A program made the translations under genes and the position numbers. From NCBI RefSeq assembly GCF_058153355.1, contig NZ_CM177019.1: a stretch of DNA of 64,000 bases; one strand, written 5' to 3'. The notes below the pieces were generated by a model that saw only the letters and a program-made list of their open reading frames with translations, was not told where the DNA came from and searched no databases. The stretch's first letter is position 1; every line of letters starts with the position of its first letter. Below, piece after piece: positions 26,956 through 41,343 of this stretch.

Positions 26956-27064
26956 TATTTTTATTCATCAGGTGATGATTAAGCTGGAAATCAATAATAG
27001 CGGATGTTGATGAATATGGGATGAAAGATAGATTGTTGAAATGTGCGGTGTGGTTTGTAGACAT

Positions 27065-27140
27065 GATAAGACGCGGCCGCGTCGCATCAGGCATTGTGTA
27101 CAGAGCGGCGGATAAGGCGAAAACGCCTTATCCGCCCGAA
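27065..27140. repeat. REP palindromic units between ygaY and proX
   Basis: gacgcggccgcgtcgcatcaggc and ggcggataaggcgaaaacgccttatccgcc inverted repeats. Confidence 0.5.
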
Positions 27141-27146
27141 TAAAAA

Positions 27147-28139
27147 TTACTTCTGCGCTGCCAGCGCCTCATTCACCCAGCCATCGAACTGCTGCTGGTG
27201 GGCTTTGATCCAACCATCAACGTGGCCCTGAATATCGCCTTCTGAGGCTTTGCCGTCATGCATAATGGCGTTCTGGGCGTTAATATCTGCCACTGGCAAC
27301 TGCATAATGGCAAACAGTTTCGCTGCCGCCGGGTTTTTCTCGGCCCAGGCTTTGTTGGCAACGATATGCATGGTGCTGACCGGGAAGCCATAATTCGCAC
27401 CATTCGGCAGTTTAGTGTCGGCGTTTTTATCGCCCGGCAGTGCGGAGAACGGCACCTGCAACCAGACGACATCTTTGCCCGGCTTCAGTTCGTTACTCAC
27501 CCAGTACGGCGTCCAGGTGTAGTAAAACACCGGCTTACCCTCTTTGTAACGACTGATGGTGTCAGCCATCATCGCTGCGTAGTTCCCCTGATTATGCGTC
27601 ACGGTATTGGTCAGTTCATACGCGGCAAGCTGGTGGTTGATCGCACCTTCGCAGCCCCAGCCTGGGTTACAGCCAGTCAAATCTGCTTTACCGTCGCCGT
27701 TGGTATCGAACAGTTTGGCGATCTTCGGATCTTTCAGTTGCGCGATGTTGGTGATTTTGTACTGGTCGGCGGTTTTCTTATCGATCAGGTAACCCTGTGC
27801 CGCGCCGTTAACGAATACCCCTTCACGATAAAATTTCTTATCGCCACCGGCAGCTTCGTACATGTTGTCATGCAGCGGCGTCCAGTTCACGGCGGTGAAG
27901 GTTGCATCGCCGGAAGCAAGTGAGGTGTAGCCAACGTTGTAATCCACTTCGCTGGGTTTATTGACGGTATAACCTAATTTCTCCAGTGCACGACTGACCA
28001 GCAGCGTCTGGAAGGTTTCTTCAGTGATGGTGCTCTGAACTGGATTAACAGTAATACCTTTGCCCGGCAGATCGGCAGCAAAAGTTTGTGTAGAGATAAG
28101 CGTGGCAAACGCTGTCGCAAAAAGTACGCTATGTCGCAT
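27147..28139 (-). CDS. proX: Glycine betaine/proline ABC transporter periplasmic binding protein
   Basis: Start at [21 protein letters not shown] signal peptide within ORF 27147..28181. Confidence 0.93.
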
Positions 28140-28196
28140 TGTTATTCCTTTTTTTGGCAGGGTGAAAATGCCCGGCGTCACCGGGCAAGTGCAGAG

Positions 28197-29261
28197 TTAC
28201 TTAATGAATGGGCGGGTCAGCAGACCGACAGGGCCAGTGGTGTACCAGCGACGGTTGCCGCGACTGCGTGAGTCGCGCCCAACGGCCTGCGTCAGGCGGT
28301 CGAGGATAATGGCGAGGATCACAATCCCGACGCCGCCAACGGTGGCAAGGCCCATATCCAGACGACCGATACCGCGAAGTACCATCTGACCCAGCCCACC
28401 GACGGCAATCATCGAGGCAATGACCACCATAGAAAGGGCCAGCATCAGCGTCTGGTTAACACCCGCCATAATGGTCGGCATCGCCAGCGGTAACTGAACT
28501 TTGAACAGCATCTGCCGCGGGCTGGCACCGAATGAGCGCGAGGCTTCAATCAGATCCGCCGGAACCTGGTTAATCCCCAGAATCGTCAGACGGATAATCG
28601 GCGGCAGAGCAAAGATGATCGTCACCACTACGCCCGGCACGTTACCGATACCAAACAGCATGACGATTGGCACCAGATAAACAAACGCTGGCGTGGTCTG
28701 CATGGCATCAAGCAGTGGACGAATAATTTTCGCCGCTCGTGGACTTCTCGCCAGCCAGATCCCCAACGGCAAACCGATGACGATACAGAACAGCAGGGCG
28801 GTTAATACCAGCGCCAGAGTAACCATTGCCTGCGACCATGCACCGATTGCGCCGATGGCAATCAGCGAAACCAGCGTCGCCACGCCCATTCCGACACCGG
28901 AAATTTGCCAGGCGATGAGAGCGAAAACGATAATCGCCACCGGCGCGGGCATACCCAGCAGCAATTGCTGGAAACCGTTAAGGATGTAATCGACCGGAAC
29001 GCGAACGCCCTGGAAGACGGGACGGAAATGGGTAACGACCCAGTCGATCCCTTCAGTGACCCAACTGTCGAGCGGGATCAGCGTTTTATGGAACGGATCG
29101 AGAATATTAAAATGCTCGACGTTTGGTGCAGGCGTACTGGTCAGCCAGTCAGCGCCACCGCCGTCAGTCGGTGCAGTCGCCGGTGTACCCCAGGCGTCTG
29201 CGGATTGTGCAGCACTGTCCGCCGCTGGCGTGGTATCCCACGGATTATTTTGATCAGCCAT
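28197..29261 (-). CDS. proW: Glycine betaine/proline ABC transporter permease
   Basis: 354 aa membrane protein; 8-bp overlap with proV. Confidence 0.93.
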
Positions 29262-30456
29262 TATTTACCCCCTCACGATCTAAAGCGCGCAGCAGCATTC
29301 CTTTCGAAATAATGCCGACATACTGTTGGTCCTCGTCGACCACGGGCACCGCACAGGGCGCTTGTCCGACATGAGAGAGCAACTCGCTAAGAGGCGTTTG
29401 CGCATCGACCGCTAATGGCGCGTCAATCAGCGCCGCATCAAGACCTTGCTGCTGCGTTAATGCGGTTTTAAGCGAATCGATAGACACTGCACCGACAAAT
29501 CTATTACCGCGTTCGATAACGTAGCCATATTCGCGGTCTTCATCCTGCAATAATTTCAATGCCGAACGCGGGCCGAAGCCGGGGGTTTTACGAATTAAGC
29601 CGTTCGGTGTACGACGGGCAATATCTTTTGCACTGAACACCTGGCTAATATCGACGCCACGGAAGAAGGTTCGGACATAATCATTCGCCGGATTATTGAG
29701 AATTTCATCCGGTGTGCCGACCTGCACCACTTCGCCATTTTGCATAATGGCAATTCGGTCGCCAATACGCATAGCTTCATCGAGATCGTGGGAAATAAAG
29801 ACAATGGTGCGCTGATGTTTCGCCTGTAATTTTACCAGCTCATCCTGCATCTCGGTGCGAATTAATGGATCAAGCGCCGAGAAGGCTTCGTCCATTAATA
29901 ATATATCCGGATTAATCGCTAACGCGCGGGCTAATCCCACACGTTGACGCATCCCGCCAGAGAGTTCATCCGGGTAGCTATGGGCATAATTTTCCAGCCC
30001 GACCTGACGCAGTGCATCAATGGCTTTTTCCCGGCGTTCTTCGGCATTAATTCCGGCCAATTCCATACCGAATGCAGTATTGTCCAGCACGGTCATATGC
30101 GGCATTAAGGCAAAGGACTGGAAGACCATCGCAATCTTTTTTCTGCGCACCTCACGGAGTTCGGCGTCGGATATTTTGGCAATATCCACACCATCAATCA
30201 GCACTTGCCCGCGGGTGGGTTCAATCAGGCGATTGAGAAGGCGTACCATTGTGGATTTACCCGAACCGGATAATCCCATGATGACAAATATCTCGCCTTC
30301 TTCAATGGCCAGACTGGCGTCTTTTACGCCAAGCGATAGCCCGGTTTTTTCCAGAATTTGTTCTTTTGAAAGTCCTTGTTCGATATATTTGAACGCTCGC
30401 TGAGGATGCTCGCCAAATATTTTATAAAGATTTTTAATTTCTAATTTAATTGCCAT
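29254..30456 (-). CDS. proV: Glycine betaine/proline ABC transporter ATPase with C-terminal CBS domains
   Basis: 400 aa; Walker [10 protein letters not shown], signature LSGGMRQR. Confidence 0.95.
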
Positions 30457-30811
30457 GCAATAGAAAGATTCCTGTTATTTGTTTATGTCGATACATTACC
30501 CAATGGAAATAGTCACTTTTTTCTACCCTAACATACTGAGAATCTGAGGCAACCCCTGATGGCAAATGTGGCATGAATATTGATGCGAGCAAATCGCCGG
30601 AATTTCCCATGATATAAGGGCTGAGAGCAAATCGAGAAAGTTGATATTTTTTTGTCATGGATAGCGAAAAAACGCCTGAATATTGTGGTTTCAGGCGAAT
30701 AATGCAACAGAGTATCAGTGTAGATCACCACAAAATATTTGCGTGATAAAAAGCTATTTGGCGGGAATTATTTCCCCTGCTGAAGTTGGTGAAATTTTGA
30801 AAAATAACCGG

Positions 30812-31780
<969 letters not shown>

Positions 31781-33925
31781 TTAAAGCGCGCAGGAAACGC
31801 AGCCTTCAATTTCAGTACCTTCCAGCGCCATCTGACGCAGGCGGATGTAGTAGAGCGTTTTGATACCTTTACGCCAGGCATAAATCTGCGCTTTGTTGAT
31901 ATCGCGAGTGGTGGCGGTATCGGGGAAAAACAGTGTCAGCGACAGCCCCTGATCGACATGGCGAGTCGCTTCGGCGTAGGTGTCGATGATCTTTTCTGCG
32001 CCGATTTCGTAAGCGTCCTGATACAGCGCCAGATTCTCGTTAGTCATAAACGGGGCAGGGTAGTAAACGCGTCCTGTTTTGCCTTCTTTGCGTATCTCTA
32101 CTTTCGCCACAATCGGATGAATACTCGACGTGGCATGGTTGATATAAGAGATGGAACCGGTTGGCGGCACCGCCTGAAGATTTTGGTTGTATATGCCATA
32201 GCGCATCACGTCGTCGCGCAGCTGCGCCCACATCTCACGGGTAGGTAACGTAATACCGCTGCGGGCAAACAGTTCGCCAACTTTCGCCGTTTTCGGCTGC
32301 CAGTTCCCTTGCAGATATTGGCTGAAATATTCACCATTGGCATAGCGTGACTGTTTGAACCCGGCGAAGGTTTCACTGCGTTCGCGCGCCAGCAACATCG
32401 AGGTACGCAGTGCGTGCCAGGTGATGGTATAGAAATAGAGATTGGTGAAATCCAGTGCTTCCGGCGAACCATAGGCGATGCCTTCTCGCGCCAGATAACC
32501 GTGTAAATTCATCTGCCCCAGACCGATAGCGTGTGAGGCGGCATTTCCGGCTTCGATGGACGGCACGCTGCGAATATGACTCATATCTGACACCGCAGTT
32601 AAACCGCGCACGGCAGTCTCTACCGTGCGGGCAAAGTCGGGGGAATCCATGGTGTGGGCAATATTCAACGAACCTAAATTGCAGGAAATATCATGGCCTG
32701 TGCGGGCATAGTCGAGATTCTCGTCATACTCTGAGGCGCTGTTAACCTGCAAAATTTCTGAGCAGAGATTGCTCATATTTATGCGCCCGGCGATAGGGTT
32801 AGCACGGTTAACCGTGTCTTCATACATGATGTAGGGATAGCCGGACTCAAACTGGATTTCTGCCAGTCGCTGGAAGAAATCACGGGCGTTGATGTATTTT
32901 TTGCGGATTCGCTCATCGGCAACCAGTTCGTCATAGTGTTCACTGATGGCGATATCGGCAAACGGCTTGCCATAAACACGCTCAATGTCATAGGGCGAAA
33001 ACAGTGCCATCTGTGCATTCTCTTTTGCCAGATGGAAGGTGATATCCGGGATAACCACGCCCAGCGACAGTGTTTTAATGCGGATTTTCTCGTCGGCATT
33101 TTCCCGCTTTGTATCGAGAAAACGCAGAATATCGGGATGATGGGCATGTAAATAGACTGCGCCAGCACCCTGACGCGCGCCGAGCTGGTTGGCATAGGAA
33201 AATGCGTCCTCCAGCATTTTCATCACCGGAATCACGCCAGAAGATTGATTTTCAATACGTTTAATTGGCGCGCCCGCTTCCCGCAGATTCGACAGCAAAA
33301 ATGCCACGCCGCCGCCGCGTTTCGACAGTTGTAGTGCGGAATTTACTGCCCGGCCAATCGACTCCATATTGTCTTCAATACGCAGCAAAAAACAGGAAAC
33401 CAGTTCGCCACGCTGCTGTTTACCGCAGTTGAGGAATGTCGGTGTTGCAGGCTGAAAGCGTCCTGACAGCATCTCATCGGTCAGTTGCGTCGCCAGTGTT
33501 TCATCGCCTTGTGCCAGCGTCAGCGCCACCATCGTGACTCGATCGGCAAAATCTTCCAGATAACGCTTACCGTCGAATGTCTTCAACGTATAGCTGGTGT
33601 AAAACTTCCATGCTCCGAGGAATGTCTGAAAACGAAAACCGCTGGCGTGTGCGTGGGCAAACAGTGTAATGACAAAATCGCGAGAGTAGCGGTTGAGGAC
33701 GTTTTCATCATAGTAACCTTCGTTGACCAGCCAGTTCAGGCGCTGCTGCTGGCTACTGAAGGTCACACTGTTCGGGCGTACATGCGTCGCCATAAAGGCG
33801 TCAACGGCCTGGCGATCTTTATCGAACTGAATGCGACCTGCGCTATCGTAAAGGTTAAGCATCGCATTCAGAGCGTGGTAATCCATCGTTTCCTGCGTCA
33901 GGCGTTCTGCGGTTGTCGTTGCCAA
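31781..33925 (-). CDS. nrdE: Class Ib ribonucleotide reductase alpha subunit
   Basis: 714 aa; C-terminal CxxC; operon context. Confidence 0.95.
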
Positions 33926-34308
33926 AATTCGGTTACTCCTTTACGAACGTTTTCGATATCGCTTTGCGTACCCATGAGTTCAAAGCGGTACAGCCACGGC
34001 ACGCCGCATTTCCGGGCTATCACATCTCCGGCGCGGCCATACGCCTCACCAAAGTTGCGATTACCCGAAGCAATAACGCCGCGAAGCAACGCCCGGTTGT
34101 GCTCGTCGTTTAAAAAGCGAATTACCTGTCGTGGCACCGCGCCAGCCGTACCGCCGCCGCCGTAAGAGGGCACGATCAGGATGTAAGGCTCGTCTACCTG
34201 AATCCGTTCCCGCTCATTGAGCGGGATGCGCACCGCGGGCAGTCCTAAACGTTCGATAAAACGCTGCGTATTTTCGGAGCTGCTGGAAAAGTAGACGAGT
34301 TGGCTCAT
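33898..34308 (-). CDS. nrdI: Flavodoxin-like NrdI
   Basis: 136 aa; overlaps nrdE start and nrdH stop. Confidence 0.92.
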
Positions 34309-34550
34309 GCACTGGCCGCGTGTGGCGCTGGATGCAGACGATTGATCATGTCCGGGCGGAAACCAGACCAGCTAAGATCGCCTGCAATCACTACCGGCAA
34401 CTGACGAAAGCCCTGCGCACGTAACGCTTCCGCCGCTTCAGGAACGCGATCGACATTAATCATTTCAAAATCAAAGCCCCGGTTTTCCATCGCCCGTTTG
34501 GTGGCGTGGCACTGAACGCAATCGTTACGAGTGTAAATAGTAATGCGCAT
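34305..34550 (-). CDS. nrdH: Glutaredoxin-like NrdH redoxin
   Basis: 81 aa with CVQC active site. Confidence 0.93.
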
Positions 34551-34653
34551 GATTCGTATTTCCGTTTAAAATGAAGATACGGCGCGATGATACGCGTCGG
34601 GTTGTCTCTCTGTTGATACAGAGATACTAGATGTAGTTGAAAAAAGATTCAAC

Positions 34654-34667
34654 CACACAATATATAG
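34654..34667. promoter_or_regulatory. Possible NrdR-box-like element upstream of nrdH
   Basis: acacaatatatagc roughly 100 bp upstream of nrdH; resembles the NrdR box consensus only loosely. Confidence 0.3.
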
Positions 34668-34796
34668 CAAATAGTGGTCGAAATTACCCTGGGTATGAGC
34701 GTGACGGGGTAGGGGGATTTTTGTGATTCACCAGACAAAAAGAAACCCCGAAATCAGGTTCCGGGGTCAAGACGCGTATTTATTATCATTGTTGCA

Positions 34797-35126
34797 CTAC
34801 GATTTGCGCATGCTTAACAGTGCGCCGATAAAAATACCTACCGCAGCTGCTGTACCCACGCTACACCAGGGTCTTTCACGAACAAAAGAATCCGCGCAGC
34901 CAACGGCATCGCGCGCGGCTTGCTGGACGCGAGTACGACCATGCATTCGCGCTCGGGTTTCTTTCAGTAGAGCCTGCGCTTTACTACGAGCGGCTTCGGC
35001 TTCCCCTTTGGCGTCGCTGCCCCAGGACTTCAATACAGACTCGAGACTGTCAGCCAATTGATTGACATCATTCTGGATATCCTGCACGCCATCATCGACG
35101 TCGTTGCGGTTCGGTCGGTTAAACAT
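34797..35126 (-). CDS. ygaM: ElaB/YqjD/DUF883 family ribosome-associated membrane-anchored protein
   Basis: Start at MFNRPNRNDVDD within ORF 34797..35138; C-terminal TM anchor. Confidence 0.85.
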   Translation of the reverse strand: MFNRPNRNDVDDGVQDIQNDVNQLADSLESVLKSWGSDAKGEAEAARSKAQALLKETRARMHGRTRVQQAARDAVGCADSFVRERPWCSVGTAAAVGIFIGALLSMRKS

Positions 35127-35277
35127 ATGATCCCCCATTAGAATTCGATGTAATTTTCAGTGTAGACCATAATTTTCTTAACTGAGGTTCATCGCGGCTT
35201 TATGGACTTTTCTGAAAGCGTTGTGAATGCGCAATCAGGTAAGGTAGGCCCGCGGTTGATAATAACGAGGATCAAAT

Positions 35278-35622
35278 ATGTATTTACGACCAGACGAGGT
35301 GGCGCGCGTACTTGAAAAAGTCGGTTTTACTGTCGATGTGGTAACTCAGAAAGCGTATGGTTACCGCCGTGGGGAAAATTATGTCTATGTTAATCGCGAA
35401 GCGCGAATGGGACGTACCGCTCTGGTAATTCATCCAACATTAAAAGAACGCAGTTCAACACTGGCTGAACCCGCTTCCGATATTAAAACTTGCGATCATT
35501 ACCAGCAATTTCCGCTCTATTTAGCGGGTGAACGTCATGAGCATTACGGTATCCCACATGGCTTTAGTTCGCGTGTTGCGCTTGAACGTTATTTGAATGG
35601 TTTATTTGGCGAAGCCAGTTAA
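35278..35622 (+). CDS. ygaC: Uncharacterized protein YgaC (DUF2002)
   Basis: 114 aa ORF; synteny between ygaM and alaE. Confidence 0.8.
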
Positions 35623-35658
35623 AGACGCGACTGGCGATGCCAGTCGCGAAAAGAAGGG

Positions 35659-36108
35659 TCAGGCTTTTACCTGCTGGTAACGGCTGACTTTGAACAGTCG
35701 GCGGCAATAATCGAGGAAGTAGCCATAAACCGCCCCCATCAACATCGAAACAACGATGTTTGAACTGACCGCCGCCATAATCTGGTGCCAGTCTGCGCCC
35801 ACCACTAACAAGATCGCCACATACACCGGTGACTGGAACGTTACATACGCCAGGATATCTGCCAGATTTTTTACCCAGCCCGACGTGCTAACTTTGCGTG
35901 CCGCGCGCATAAACAGATCGCGGTACATACCGTATGGCCATGCAATTAAGATGTTCACCGGAATCGCTACCAATCTGGAATAAATAGACTGTTCGAAGCT
36001 CATTCCGGAGAGGAAAACTTCAATACACATGTTCACGACAGAACAGTAAACAACCATCGCGAACGTATCTGCAACTGCATGACGCAAGCGTGACTGCGGT
36101 GAGAACAT
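35659..36108 (-). CDS. alaE: L-alanine exporter
   Basis: 149 aa hydrophobic protein. Confidence 0.85.
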
Positions 36109-36774
36109 GCTAATGCTCCTTAATAAAAGCGTAATGGGACATTAATAGAGATGAAAGCAGTGGATCTCATTGCCATCTGCATTTTCGCATAGCGTATATC
36201 GCTGGCTATGACTAATCAATTAGTGAAAAATTTTTATTTAATCTGTTTTTGTAGATAAAATATTCCGTAGCGGCGCGTTTTTTGTACGTTGTGGATTTTT
36301 ACGTGCCGATATACTTAATTTTCAATTAAATCAAATATATATGCATGTGACTTTATTTTCGCTAATGGAGGTTTGGGAGGAGGTTACGCCATAAGCGTAG
36401 AGAATTCGGTGAATGTAATGATTTGGTCATTTTCAGCATTTTTTATGCCAGATAATGCACAATGCCAGCAGAAAACACCAGTGAGATATACTTTTTACTA
36501 TTCAGTTTGATTGCATTTTTATTCATTTTTGTTTTGTTGGGCTTGAGGGGGGTGGTGAGCGGCGAGCGCCGGTCTGTTCATCGATAACCGAAATTACTCA
36601 TCAAAATGGCTAATATATAATCTTGAAATTATTCTGCGTGTCTCAGAAAATAACAGCTGAAATAATCTCATGAAGGACTGTAAATAGATTAAATTTTGTG
36701 GAAATATAATAAGTGATCGCTTACACTACGCGACGAAATACTTTTTGTTTTGGCGTTAAAAGGTTTCCTTTATT

Positions 36775-37179
36775 ATGTCCGTAATGTTACAAAGTCTAAA
36801 TAACATTCGCACTCTCCGTGCGATGGCTCGCGAATTCTCCATTGACGTTCTTGAAGAAATGCTCGAAAAATTCAGGGTTGTCACTAAAGAAAGACGTGAA
36901 GAAGAAGCACAGCAGCAGCGTGAATTGGCAGAGCGCCAGGAAAAAATTAGTACCTGGCTGGAGCTGATGAAAGCTGACGGAATTAACCCGGAAGAGTTAT
37001 TGGGTAATAGCTCTGCTGCTGCACCACGCGCTGGTAAAAAACGCCAGCCGCGTCCGGCGAAATATAAATTCACCGATGTTAACGGTGAAACTAAAACCTG
37101 GACCGGTCAGGGCCGTACACCGAAGCCAATCGCTCAGGCGCTGGCAGAAGGTAAATCTCTCGACGATTTCCTGATCTAA
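36775..37179 (+). CDS. stpA: H-NS paralog DNA-binding protein StpA
   Basis: 134 aa; N-terminal coiled coil and C-terminal [12 protein letters not shown]-binding motif; long AT-rich upstream region. Confidence 0.95.
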
Positions 37180-37225
37180 TTACTGAGGCCGGATGTCGCT
37201 GCTATGGCGCGTCCGGCGTCGCTTC

Positions 37226-37750
37226 TCAAGCTTGTTGGTTCCACGGCATCTTATCTAACAACCTTGCCATCCCACAAAAACCGCTAATTCCTGCAAACAG
37301 TAACCCGGCACCAACAAAGCCACTTAATAAGAAGAAACCACTATTTACGGTATAACCCAGTACAACGCCGATTAATATTAAACCACCCGCGGCGATCTGC
37401 ACCTGGCGCATTAACGGCAAGGGTTGAGACTTATTTACCGCAACTGGCAATCCTGCTTTTTTCCAGCCATCAATCCCATCTTCGAGTAAAAAGATTTCTG
37501 CGGGTGCGGCAATCGCTGCTAATTTATCGGCGTTATTACTGGTGCGTTTACCTGCCTGGCAGTGGAAGATAATTTGCTCACGACGTAATTTAGCCGGAAG
37601 ACCTGACTGTTCGAGCACAGATAATGGAGCCAAATCTGCTTCAGGAATATGTTCACGAAGATATTCATCAGCATCACGAATATCGATTAAATTTGCGCCG
37701 CGTGCGATTAATTCTTGTGCACCGTGCGGCGAAATGGTTGTCAAAGCCAT
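37226..37750 (-). CDS. ygaP: Rhodanese-domain thiosulfate sulfurtransferase, membrane-anchored
   Basis: 174 aa; rhodanese active site CQAGKRT; C-terminal TM helices. Confidence 0.88.
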
Positions 37751-37759
37751 AGTGACTCC

Positions 37760-38059
37760 TTACGGACAATAGACATTTTTCAGGGTGGCGATAATGGCAT
37801 TTACCGCCTCATTTTTAATGGAATATAGAATGCGTTGGGCATCCCGTTGGCTGTCGATAAGCCCTTCGTCCCGCATACGAGCGAGATGCTGTGATGTTGC
37901 AGAGGCACTTAGTCCGGTAATGCGCGTCAGCTCTCCCGCGCTGGTGCCGGGTGAACCGCTAAGCATGCACAGAATCAGCAACCGTTTGGGGTGGCTCATT
38001 GCTTTCAATAAGGCCGCTGCCTGTTCGGCACTGGCCTGTAATTGCGCGAGTTCAGTCAT
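37760..38059 (-). CDS. ygaV: ArsR/SmtB-family transcriptional regulator
   Basis: 99 aa winged-HTH; co-oriented with ygaP. Confidence 0.88.
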   Translation of the reverse strand: MTELAQLQASAEQAAALLKAMSHPKRLLILCMLSGSPGTSAGELTRITGLSASATSQHLARMRDEGLIDSQRDAQRILYSIKNEAVNAIIATLKNVYCP

Positions 38060-38241
38060 AGTTATTTAAGTATTCTCTAAATTAAGTAAACTCTAAACTA
38101 AAAATACAACATATGCCAGCATCAGCCGCGTAAATGAGAGTAAAAGCGTAAGCTGAAACTGGCAGGCTCCGCTAAAATTACTACGCTTAAGAGATAAAAT
38201 CTCTTTTTAAACAATGAGTAATTTTCTTATAGGGAGTACAT

Positions 38242-38400
38242 ATGGGTTTCTGGAGAATCGTCATCACCATCATTCTGCCGCCGCTCGGCGTGCTGCTCGG
38301 TAAAGGGTTCGGTTGGGCGTTCATTATTAATATTCTGCTGACACTGCTTGGGTATATCCCCGGTTTGATTCACGCGTTCTGGGTGCAAACCCGCGATTAA
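38242..38400 (+). CDS. yqaE: Pmp3/UPF0057-family small membrane proteolipid (52 aa)
   Basis: Hand-translated MGFWRIVITIILPPLGVLLGKGFGWAFIINILLTLLGYIPGLIHAFWVQTRD; GGGAG RBS upstream; below the ORF-track length cutoff. Confidence 0.85.
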   Translation: MGFWRIVITIILPPLGVLLGKGFGWAFIINILLTLLGYIPGLIHAFWVQTRD

Positions 38401-38483
38401 ACCTGTCCTCACCCCCGCGGCGTTAACGCGCCGCGTTCCTCTGCTACACTTTCTGAGTGTTTCCGTTAACGAATGAGGTAGCT

Positions 38484-38933
38484 ATGGGTCTGTTCAATTT
38501 TGTGAAAGATGCCGGAGAAAAACTCTGGGACGCGGTTACAGGTCAGCACGATAAAGACGATCAGGCGAAGAAGGTGCAGGAGCATTTGAACAAAACCGGT
38601 ATACCTGATGCCGATAAAGTGAATATTCAAATTGCCGACGGCAAAGCGACGGTCACTGGTGACGGCTTAAGTCAGGAGGCGAAGGAGAAAATCCTTGTTG
38701 CGGTGGGGAATATTTCCGGTATTGCCAGTGTCGATGATCAGGTGAAAACGGCGACACCAGCCACTGCCAGCCAGTTTTATACCGTTAAGTCTGGCGACAC
38801 TCTGAGTGCCATTTCCAAACAGGTCTACGGTAACGCCAATCTGTACAATAAAATCTTCGAAGCGAATAAACCGATGCTAAAAAGCCCGGATAAAATTTAC
38901 CCGGGGCAAGTGTTGCGTATTCCTGAAGAGTAG
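38484..38933 (+). CDS. kbp: Potassium-binding protein (BON + LysM domains)
   Basis: Start at [14 protein letters not shown] within ORF 38457..38933; C-terminal Lys[15 protein letters not shown]. Confidence 0.9.
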
Positions 38934-39596
38934 TTAATTGCCAGCCATCGCCTGCTGGATAATGGGAATTGGCGTCAGTAAATGCTGGCGCATTAACTCA
39001 CTGGCGCGCGCGGTATCTCGCGCCAGTACCGCCGCAGTCAGGGTCTGGTGCTGATCGCGTTTATCCTCCAGCATTTCCACCGAAAGCACTGTTCGCCGCA
39101 GCCAGATAAATCGATAGCGCGCCGCCAGATCAAACAACCGTTCACGCATTTGCAGCAAATAGTGAGAACCACAGCCCGCCACAATTGCAGTATGAAACGC
39201 CTGATGACGCAGATCCCACTCATCAAGCATTTTCTCACTGGCGTCACAGGCCTCCAGCTTACTCAGCAGATGCGCTTTTGCGAGAACGTCTGCCTCCCAT
39301 TCATCGCCACCGCGGGCAATCGCCAGACTGACCAGCATCGCTTCCATATTGGCGCGGGCGTCGAAAATATCGAGCAGCTCCTGCTCTGACATAGACGTCA
39401 CCCGATACCCTTTTTGATTCACCACCGTGACCAGTCGTTCCGCCACCAGTTGCGAAAGGGCTTCCCGCAACGGCCCAACACCAAGAGCATAACGCGATGT
39501 CAGCACACTCATCCGTAATTTTTCATCCGGTTGAAAATTACCGCGAATAATATCGTTTTTCAGCCAGCGATAGCCATCCAGAGACGTAATGGTCAT
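38934..39596 (-). CDS. csiR: GntR-family regulator of csiD-lhgO-gabDTP
   Basis: Start at MTITSLDGYRWLKNDIIRG within ORF 38934..39614; FadR-type C-terminus. Confidence 0.9.
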   Translation of the reverse strand: MTITSLDGYRWLKNDIIRGNFQPDEKLRMSVLTSRYALGVGPLREALSQLVAERLVTVVNQKGYRVTSMSEQELLDIFDARANMEAMLVSLAIARGGDEWEADVLAKAHLLSKLEACDASEKMLDEWDLRHQAFHTAIVAGCGSHYLLQMRERLFDLAARYRFIWLRRTVLSVEMLEDKRDQHQTLTAAVLARDTARASELMRQHLLTPIPIIQQAMAGN

Positions 39597-39616
39597 GGTG
39601 TGACTCCTGATCATTA

Positions 39617-41017
39617 TTAGCGCGTATTATGAACGGGTGTTTTTTGCCACAATACCAGTTTTTTCCAGCGCGCCATAATTGGCACGGTACAGATAATCCC
39701 TATCGCTAATAAGCCAGTGGAGATCACTTCTAACTGTTGCGCCGGGCGGAATAGCATCACTACCAACACAAAGGTAATAAAGCCGATTACCAGCCAGGTG
39801 AGCCACGGATAAAGCCACATCCGCAGGCGAATTTCGCTTCCTTCTGCTCGCAGAATTTTGCGCATCCGCAATTGTGAAACGGCGATGACTAAATAAACCA
39901 GCAGGGCGATAGCGCCGGAGCTGTCGATCAGAAATTTAAACACTTTCGCCGGTGCGTAATAGTTCACCACCACCGTTAAAAACGCCGCGCCGGTGGAGAG
40001 TAACACCGCCACGTACGGGGTTTTACTGCGGTTAATTTTGCCCATTACCGCGGGTGCATCACCGCGACGGCTTAAGGAGTAGAGCATCCTTGACGCGGTA
40101 TACAGCGCCGAGTTCAGGCAACTGGTTACGGAAAGTAATATCACGCAGTCCATGATTAATTTCGCATGAGGAATATTGAGTAATTCCAGTACCGAGCGAT
40201 AAGAACCCACGGCTTTCAGCCCCGGCATATTCCACGGAATTAATGCCACGACGACAAAAATAGAACACAAATAGAATATAGAAATACGCCAGATAACCGA
40301 GTTGGTGGCGCGGACAATATGTTTTTCCGGCGTGTCGGATTCCGCGGCGGCAATGGTGACAATTTCTGCGCCCATAAACGAGAACATGGTGATCAACATC
40401 GCGCTTAATACCGCACCGAAGCCATTGGGCATAAAGCCGCCGCTATCCCACAATCTTGAGATCCCGCTCACTTCGGCATAAGGGTAAAAACCGCTAATTG
40501 CGACTGCACCAAGGAAAATAAAGGCCAGGATAGCGATGACTTTGCACAGCGCCAGCCAGAACTCAAATTCGCCGTAGTTTTTAACGCTTAATAAATTACT
40601 GCCAGTTAAGGCGAGGGTAATGACGAGGGAAAATAACCAGATGGGAATGCCTGGAACCCACGAGTGCAGGATCATGGCGGCGATGTTGGCTTCCAGCGGG
40701 ATAACCAATACCCAAAACCACCAGTACAGCCAGCCGATGGTATAACCCGCCCAACGGCCAATAGCTTTATCGGCATAGGTGGAAAACGAACCCGTGTCGG
40801 GCGTGGCAACCGCCATTTCCGCCAACATCCGCATAATCATAACCACCAGTAATCCGGCGAACAGATAGGCCAGTAATACCGCCGGGCCCGCTTCGGCGAT
40901 GGCGACGCTGGAACCGACAAACAGACTTGCGCCGATAACACCGGCAATAGACAACATGGTGACGTGGCGTGACTTCAGCCCGCCGCCTAACTCATGTGGT
41001 TGCGATGATTGCCCCAT
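39617..41017 (-). CDS. gabP: GABA permease (APC family)
   Basis: Start at MGQSSQPHELGGGLKSRHVTML within ORF 39617..41080; 12-TMS. Confidence 0.93.
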   Translation of the reverse strand: MGQSSQPHELGGGLKSRHVTMLSIAGVIGASLFVGSSVAIAEAGPAVLLAYLFAGLLVVMIMRMLAEMAVATPDTGSFSTYADKAIGRWAGYTIGWLYWWFWVLVIPLEANIAAMILHSWVPGIPIWLFSLVITLALTGSNLLSVKNYGEFEFWLALCKVIAILAFIFLGAVAISGFYPYAEVSGISRLWDSGGFMPNGFGAVLSAMLITMFSFMGAEIVTIAAAESDTPEKHIVRATNSVIWRISIFYLCSIFVVVALIPWNMPGLKAVGSYRSVLELLNIPHAKLIMDCVILLSVTSCLNSALYTASRMLYSLSRRGDAPAVMGKINRSKTPYVAVLLSTGAAFLTVVVNYYAPAKVFKFLIDSSGAIALLVYLVIAVSQLRMRKILRAEGSEIRLRMWLYPWLTWLVIGFITFVLVVMLFRPAQQLEVISTGLLAIGIICTVPIMARWKKLVLWQKTPVHNTR

Positions 41018-41104
41018 CCTGAATCCTCTCGAAAGTGTGACACTTGGGAGAGCGGCCCGACATTTCCCGCGTCGGGTCACGCGTTTAATTGTTATTGGTT
41101 CTTT

Positions 41105-41335
41105 TTGCCGGAGAGCGGCTCCGCCTTATCCGGCCGACATAGATTTATTCCTGTTCACGTACAGATTGTTGGATGCGGCGTAAACGCCTTATCCGACCTG
41201 GATTCTCGTAGGCCGGACAAGACGCGAAGCGTCGCCTCCGGCATGGTGCGCCGAATGTCGGATGCGGCGTAAACGCCTTATCCGACCTACATTTCCGTAG
41301 GCCGGACAAGACGCAAAGCGTCGCCTCCGGCATGG
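41105..41335. repeat. BIME: tandem REP elements between gabT and gabP
   Basis: Two near-identical ~60-bp units GGATGCGGCGTAAACGCCTTATCCGACCT...TAGGCCGGACAAGACGC(G/A)AAGCGTCGCCTCCGGCATG. Confidence 0.75.
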
Positions 41336-41343
41336 GTGCGGTG

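Follow-up and report, generated by a model that had tools for sequence, protein, structure and literature searches.

The 666-bp interval at positions 36109-36774 of the window (the whole 64,000-nucleotide stretch of DNA that was analysed) is very probably the orthologue of the alaE-stpA region of Escherichia coli K-12, that is, a protein-bound transcriptional control region of four modules and not a gene. A multiple alignment splits the interval into an alaE leader, an alaE array, a variable centre and an stpA promoter and leader (Table 1). That alaE and stpA diverge from a control region bound by nucleoid-associated proteins is already known. What the present analysis adds is a fine-scale comparative map of the alaE-stpA spacer, supplying a predicted alaE promoter with an Lrp-type array in 78 species, a conserved predicted stpA core promoter and a neutrally drifting spacer between them. 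The map could guide mutagenesis; otherwise it has little importance beyond annotation.

Table 1. Features of the alaE-stpA interval and its flanking genes, in window positions
Feature	Position	Strand	Remarks
alaE (L-alanine exporter) CDS	35659..36108	-	149-aa ORF; left limit of the interval; 98% identical to K-12 alaE b2670
Predicted alaE 5' leader (~76 nt)	36109..36184	-	start placed from the conserved promoter
Rigid alaE upstream control array (154 bp)	36187..36340	-	defined by conservation in 78 species
Dyad TAGCGTATATCGCTG	36190..36204		outer triplets as in the Lrp consensus YAG-N9-CTR; overlaps the alaE -10 and spacer
Predicted alaE sigma-70 core promoter	36191..36219	-	-35 TTGATT (complement of 36214-36219), 17-bp spacer, -10 TACGCT (complement of 36191-36196)
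Array block CAAyTAG	36217..36223
Array block AAATTTTTATTTA	36228..36240
Array block TTTTGTAGATAAAATATTCC	36247..36266
Array block GTTTTTTG	36278..36285
Array block ATTTTTAC	36295..36302		mostly TTTTCGTTG in other genera
Array block TAAATCAA	36326..36333
Hypervariable central spacer (350 bp)	36341..36690		mean major-base frequency 0.35, 32% gaps (61 sequences)
Predicted stpA core promoter	36699..36727	+	-35-like TGGAAA (36699-36704), 17-bp spacer, -10 TACACT (36722-36727)
Predicted stpA 5' leader (~42 nt)	36733..36774	+	Shine-Dalgarno AAGG at 36760-36763; placed from promoter position and sequence
stpA (H-NS paralogue) CDS	36775..37179	+	134-aa ORF; right limit of the interval; 99% identical to K-12 stpA b2669

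Limits, occurrence and coding potential of the interval

The interval is the complete gap between alaE, on the minus strand, and stpA, on the plus strand, and is bounded on both sides by the start codons of the two ORFs. Since the flanking ORFs are 98% and 99% identical to annotated K-12 proteins, 36109-36774 is the entire divergent intergenic region. The neighbouring genes ygaM, ygaC, ygaP and ygaV stand in K-12 order (ygaM-ygaC-alaE / stpA-ygaP-ygaV), and the proteins of this context are 94-99% identical, in the same gene order, in K-12 and eight other E. coli genomes. Across the homologous 50 kb of E. coli N96, this gap, at 666 bp, is longer than any other that separates core genes. Beyond tRNA-Ile, strain N96 carries ypjA (an AIDA-repeat protein), an anti-phage dCTP deaminase, an integrase and phage regulators, a gene content suggesting that an island adjoins the core locus.

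The GC content of the interval is 35.1%, as against 50.0% for the whole window, and only 3.4% of 666-bp windows have a GC content this low or lower. A/T tracts of at least 4 bases occur at 34.5 per kb in the interval; the whole window has 11.0 per kb and dinucleotide shuffles have 21.6 +/- 3.9 per kb, with none of 500 shuffles reaching the value of the interval. The longest ORF has 45 aa, a length attained by 83% of the shuffles, whose mean is 59 aa. The initial annotation, which had described about 660 bp without a credible ORF, strongly AT-rich and with A/T tracts, between divergent genes that it named alaE and stpA, was thus right in its coordinates, its composition, its gene names and its layout. 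Other stretches of the window below 40% GC lie at about 46270-53020, 59700-61860 and 30170-31030, with a minimum of 28.5% GC at 48684-49349. A 13-nt inverted repeat (36236-36248 and 36682-36694) and other such pairs were considered and set aside as being at chance level for AT-rich DNA.

The interval is present as a single copy in 5419 of the 5426 complete E. coli genomes, 5417 of which match it over 100% of the query at 87.7-90.3% identity. No annotated feature lies under the match in the 20 matches listed or at the nine loci inspected, K-12 RefSeq included. In one strain, E. coli QL57EC (locus L083, 1924-3342), IS1X2 replaces the 5' end of alaE together with the alaE-proximal half of the intergenic region, and stpA and its proximal 340 bp are intact. 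We gathered the alaE neighbourhood from 80 Enterobacteriaceae species, and compared the divergent pair with 60 other sequences, made up of 58 species loci, K-12 and WL297. In every one of these 60 sequences, a long stretch of 475-790 bp separates the divergent alaE and stpA, and this DNA is AT-rich, with 31-43% GC. The initial annotation had held that the interval is larger than a simple promoter needs, and this view survives in part: the alaE leader and control array account for about 230 bp and the stpA promoter and leader for about 84 bp, so that only about 350 bp are left unexplained.

It is extremely improbable that the interval holds a small protein gene, whether this would be the 41-aa ORF at 36462-36587 (+), the 45-aa ORF at 36373-36510 (+) or a 20-aa uORF at 36120-36182 (-). 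The length of the longest of these is below the shuffle expectation, as given above. The hydrophobic 41-aa product (MPAENTSEIYFLLFSLIAFLFIFVLLGLRGVVSGERRSVHR) does resemble a single-pass membrane peptide, but no Shine-Dalgarno sequence precedes its ORF, the frame lacks a start codon and contains internal stops in other E. coli alleles, and its pN/pS of 0.77 is no lower than that of other frames. The uORF opens 2 nt past the predicted alaE transcription start, and 11 nt separate its end from the ATG of alaE. In E. coli, MOD1-EC7003 and E. albertii the uORF is preserved in length and stop codon; three other Escherichia species and every other genus lack it, and an alaE leader peptide was rejected on account of this confinement. 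When the intergenic ORFs of the 61 sequences were compared all-against-all, none was common across genera except over conserved DNA blocks, and such cross-genus ORFs are present in only a minority of species. A hidden protein or type I toxin was rejected on the ORF-length shuffles, the comparison of the 41-aa frame and its pN/pS, and the 61-sequence ORF comparison.

The initial annotation had also suggested that the interval could hold unannotated regulatory RNAs, and for this suggestion we found no support. A small or cis-regulatory RNA, for instance a separate sRNA or an extended leader of stpA transcribed from farther upstream, is very unlikely here. Cryptic promoters are frequent in AT-rich H-NS-bound DNA. 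Promoter-like sequences on the plus strand at 36623-36651 (TTGAAA-17-GAAAAT) and at 36233-36261 (the conserved TTTATT-17-TAAAAT) could be read in favor of such a transcript, as could the stpA-directed promoter about 450 bp upstream predicted in K-12 by Shimada et al. (PMC3946193). The four promoter-like sites in the interval, however, are what shuffles would give (3.2 +/- 1.9), the centre of the interval is unconserved even within the genus, and K-12 RefSeq annotates no ncRNA in the region. At E<=10, Rfam 15 yielded only four matches, all at chance level and to eukaryotic, viral or unrelated families, the sole one overlapping the interval being TUG1_1 at 36419-36598 (21.9 bits against a gathering score of 80). 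The terminator scan found nothing terminator-like on either strand of 36109-36774, and none of the folding z-scores for 52 windows on both strands is significant, the lowest being -2.3. Folding of the aligned alaE leaders from 29 genera gave no conserved structure, only a 5-bp helix of -2.3 kcal/mol. A hidden RNA was rejected on the Rfam E-value scan, the terminator scan, the folding z-scores of both strands and the folding of the 29-genus leader alignment.

The alaE and stpA arms and their binding proteins

On the alaE side, the array is rigid: 50 of its 154 positions are at least 90% identical in the 78 species, with gaps below 1%, and its GC content is 29.9%. The centres of its conserved blocks lie about 30-40 bp apart and reach to about -155. 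Because the periodicity of the blocks is weak (autocorrelation of 0.21 at lag 31), we make no claim of periodicity for the array. It is equally conserved in 19 species in which stpA is not adjacent, and thus the array belongs to alaE. In those 19 species (a subset of loci L044-L080, for example Kosakonia and Silvania), alaE still seems to have a long non-coding stretch upstream, the next ORF of at least 80 aa being as much as about 800-1000 bp away.

In the predicted alaE promoter, the T, T and G of the -35 and the T, A, C and T of the -10 are invariant in all 61 sequences, and the spacing is fixed at 17 bp. These conserved hexamers predict an alaE start near 36184 and a leader of 76 nt. Within the leader module of the alignment (36109-36186), little is kept besides the Shine-Dalgarno AGGAG (the complement of 36116-36120; CTCCT in the alignment) and a conserved CACTA (the complement of 36159-36163; TAGyG in the alignment). 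From block 2 to the alaE ATG there are 60-85 nt in the 29 genera in which this block could be found.

On the stpA side, the T of the -35-like hexamer and the T, A and T at -10 positions 1, 2 and 6 are invariant in all 61 sequences. In 57 of them the motif, spaced by 16-18 bp, is found 72-80 nt ahead of the ATG. A perfect TATAAT at 36705-36710, within the spacer of this promoter, may act as another stpA -10; its conservation is limited to Escherichia, Salmonella and some Citrobacter. The whole promoter and leader module (36691-36774, 84 bp) is identical in 8 E. coli genomes. Because the hexamers of both the alaE and the stpA promoter are weak, a generic promoter scan reported neither of them.

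The dyad that overlaps the predicted alaE promoter differs from the Lrp consensus YAGHAWATTWTDCTR by 3 mismatches (a 12/15 match), and its pattern ATAGnnTATnnnnCTG is conserved across 78 species. Counting consensus matches is uninformative here: the interval has 3 matches to YAGHAWATTWTDCTR at <=3 mismatches, one of them this dyad, against 3.3 +/- 2.0 in shuffles, and for H-NS as for Lrp, consensus counts are no higher than in composition-matched shuffles. The H-NS high-affinity motif TCGATAAATT has no match in the interval at <=1 mismatch; at 2 mismatches there is one, TAGATAAAAT at 36252-36261, which is below the shuffle expectation. At the equivalent of these positions, where Escherichia has TAGATAAAAT, most other genera have TCGATAAAAT, a 9/10 match to TCGATAAATT that sits inside the most conserved block of the array (as in Citrobacter, Salmonella and Klebsiella loci, e.g. 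L010, L031 and L060).

We predicted curvature with a wedge model, for which phased, unphased and random controls gave 37, 12 and 10 degrees. By its mean predicted curvature, the interval ranks within the top 0.9% of 666-bp windows and exceeds 97% of dinucleotide shuffles (p ~0.03). Within the array, the predicted curvature peaks at 36220, 36251 and 36281.

For the K-12 locus, much of the protein binding has been described. ChIP-seq of Lrp shows strong double peaks in the stpA-alaE region, one of which is kept with leucine, isoleucine and valine, the condition of strong alaE activation (PMC10127797). Removal of a partner peak in ygaP, more than 1 kb away, lowers the activation of stpA by Lrp more than 5-fold, and in atomic force microscopy an stpA-alaE DNA fragment is bridged by purified Lrp, with bridging abolished by leucine (PMC10127797). 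Activation of alaE by Lrp with L-alanine or L-leucine is stated in the part of PMC6801825 that cites Ihara et al. 2017. H-NS silences stpA, which in minimal medium is Lrp-dependent (PMC4668568), and genomic SELEX found an RpoD-holoenzyme peak in the stpA-alaE spacer, which is also flagged there as H-NS-associated (PMC3946193). For the H-NS flag and the silencing of stpA, this literature covers K-12 and Salmonella (PMC3946193, PMC4668568).

Given these reports on Lrp and H-NS in K-12, the part of the initial annotation that proposed nucleoid-protein sites amounts to established knowledge for the locus. Its statement that stpA is regulated by H-NS and Lrp agrees with the literature (PMC4668568); the sites themselves are supported for the K-12 orthologue, mostly from published work (Lrp ChIP and AFM, PMC10127797; H-NS flag, PMC3946193); and predicted curvature, which it had named as a check, is high by the figures above, as is the density of A-tracts. 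In the present genome, Lrp and H-NS occupancy and their effects would be expected by homology with the K-12 literature, and the promoter hexamers, the start sites and the choice of blocks as Lrp sites are our predictions from sequence. Because the centre of the window's interval is 15-18% different from K-12-type alleles, findings at individual K-12 sites can safely be carried over to the conserved arms only.

We can propose a mechanism on this basis. The array would hold the alaE sigma-70 promoter (TTGATT-17-TACGCT) and a series of Lrp-like sites, of which the one over the core promoter would repress, and the remaining ones, out to about -155, would activate when Lrp carries alanine or leucine. 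Next to the array lies a spacer of about 350 bp, AT-rich, predicted to be bent, and drifting in sequence at a neutral rate, followed by the 84-bp stpA module with its putative promoter (TGGAAA-17-TACACT) and leader. By homology with K-12, Lrp on the interval would bridge to a second site in ygaP and so activate stpA, and H-NS would coat the AT-rich DNA and so silence it.

The central spacer and the divergent allele of this genome

The centre of the interval drifts at about the synonymous rate, with divergences of 0.097, 0.145 and 0.164 against synonymous values of 0.099, 0.137 and 0.145, respectively, among the E. coli-type lineages K-12, WL297 and MOD1-EC7003, and the arms diverge at about one third of dS among these lineages. 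Among 8 E. coli genomes, nucleotide diversity is highest in the centre (0.059), lower at third codon positions (0.042) and in the alaE arm (0.024), and 0.000 in the stpA arm. There is no detectable sequence constraint on the centre. Inside it are three copies of TATTCATTTT, with T-tracts at a 10-bp period, at 36499-36530, and beside this repeat is a GC-rich patch in the AT-rich gap (36535-36574, 40 bp, 72% GC). A central GC maximum above the 95th percentile of shuffles was also seen in 26 of the 61 sequences, usually just past the alaE array.

It is conceivable, if unlikely, that the centre is kept by selection on its length and AT-richness (bendability) and not on its sequence, as a tether for bridging by an Lrp hexadecamer or an H-NS filament, the elements bridged being the alaE array, the stpA promoter and the ygaP site. 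Unconstrained DNA tends to be deleted from bacterial genomes, and all 60 other divergent-pair sequences keep at least 475 bp at 31-43% GC even though their central sequence is not alignable. Further curvature peaks at 36435, 36493, 36517 and 36600, together with the 10-bp-period T-tract repeat, are consistent with a bent tether, and bridging by Lrp has been demonstrated at the K-12 locus (PMC10127797). However, the length ranges from 475 to 790 bp with many indels, so that no spacing is fixed in the centre; a GC content of 35-38% is about the outcome of AT-biased mutation on unconstrained DNA; curvature is only modestly above that of shuffles (p ~0.03); and the partner site shown to matter in K-12 is in ygaP, not in the centre (PMC10127797). 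Whichever of these considerations prevails, the spacer is a clean natural test case for the question of whether nucleoid-protein bridging needs length and composition rather than sequence.

The allele carried by this genome is unusual. The centre of its interval is 15-18% different from every sampled E. coli allele, as against 3-7% at flanking third-codon positions, and over the central 300-350 bp the divergence from K-12 and every other sampled E. coli allele is 15-19%, 2-3 times the local synonymous divergence. Substitutions unique to this lineage number 27 in 320 bp, with 19 in 2690 bp of flanking sequence, and cluster at 36288-36572. At best, positions 27000-47000 of the window (20 kb) are 97.5-97.7% identical to any of 5426 complete E. 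coli genomes, and an E. coli-like lineage, deep or unsampled, seems to be the origin of the window.

One possible explanation, which we think less likely than not, is that the centre is a segment replaced ("switched") by recombination, which would account for the divergent allele better than local drift. The excess of the centre over flanking third-codon positions (8 E. coli alleles) and the clustering of the unique substitutions both argue for a replacement, and so does the finding that in other lineages the centre tracks dS. Against it, we found no donor or identical allele: none of the 5419 E. coli genomes exceeds 90.3% identity over the whole interval, and metagenome contigs lack two exact 22-28-mers that were looked for. 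The allele is also about equally far from MOD1-EC7003 and from E. coli, and much farther from other Escherichia species. The segment is, moreover, still collinear and alignable with E. coli, and it is therefore a divergent allele and not unrelated DNA. A short tract imported from an unsampled lineage would be the simplest reading of this allele. A bolder proposal joins the two questions, namely that the centre is selected for length and AT-rich bendability as a tether coupling alaE and stpA, and that the allele in the window is naturally rewired, with altered expression of stpA or alaE; we consider this distinctly improbable.

Comparison with known systems

The stpA-alaE (ygaW) region of K-12 (NC_000913.3, 2798496-2799163) has the same flanking genes, orientation and synteny as the window, and its 668 bp align collinearly with our 666 bp at 88% identity. 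Identity with K-12 is about 96% over the alaE arm and about 95-99% over the stpA arm, and the two regions differ in the 41-aa and 45-aa ORFs of the window, which are lineage-specific and absent from K-12.

Multi-site Lrp promoters such as ilvIH, pap, dadAX and gltBDF have several degenerate Lrp sites in an AT-rich upstream array. The alaE side resembles them in having an AT-rich array of about 150 bp, with candidate degenerate sites about three helical turns apart, in an outcome altered by an effector (leucine or alanine), and in long-range cooperative binding or bridging. It differs from them in that the Lrp sites here are proposed from conservation and one 12/15 consensus match rather than from footprints, and in that alaE is served by one array and the divergent stpA comes under the influence of this intergenic Lrp complex as well.

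With H-NS-silenced curved promoters (proU/proV, hns and bgl) the interval shares a GC content 15 points under that of the genome, enriched A-tracts, high predicted curvature and, from the literature, a downstream gene (stpA) that is derepressed in hns mutants. Unlike those promoters, it is core-genome DNA that was not horizontally acquired and is without TCGATAAATT at <=1 mismatch.

Finally, the interval is similar to hypervariable or "switched" intergenic regions of E. coli in that the flanking genes are conserved and the core diverges at or above the synonymous rate. It is unlike them in that its alleles are collinear and homologous and both promoter-proximal arms are conserved, and thus any regulatory rewiring would be confined to the spacer.
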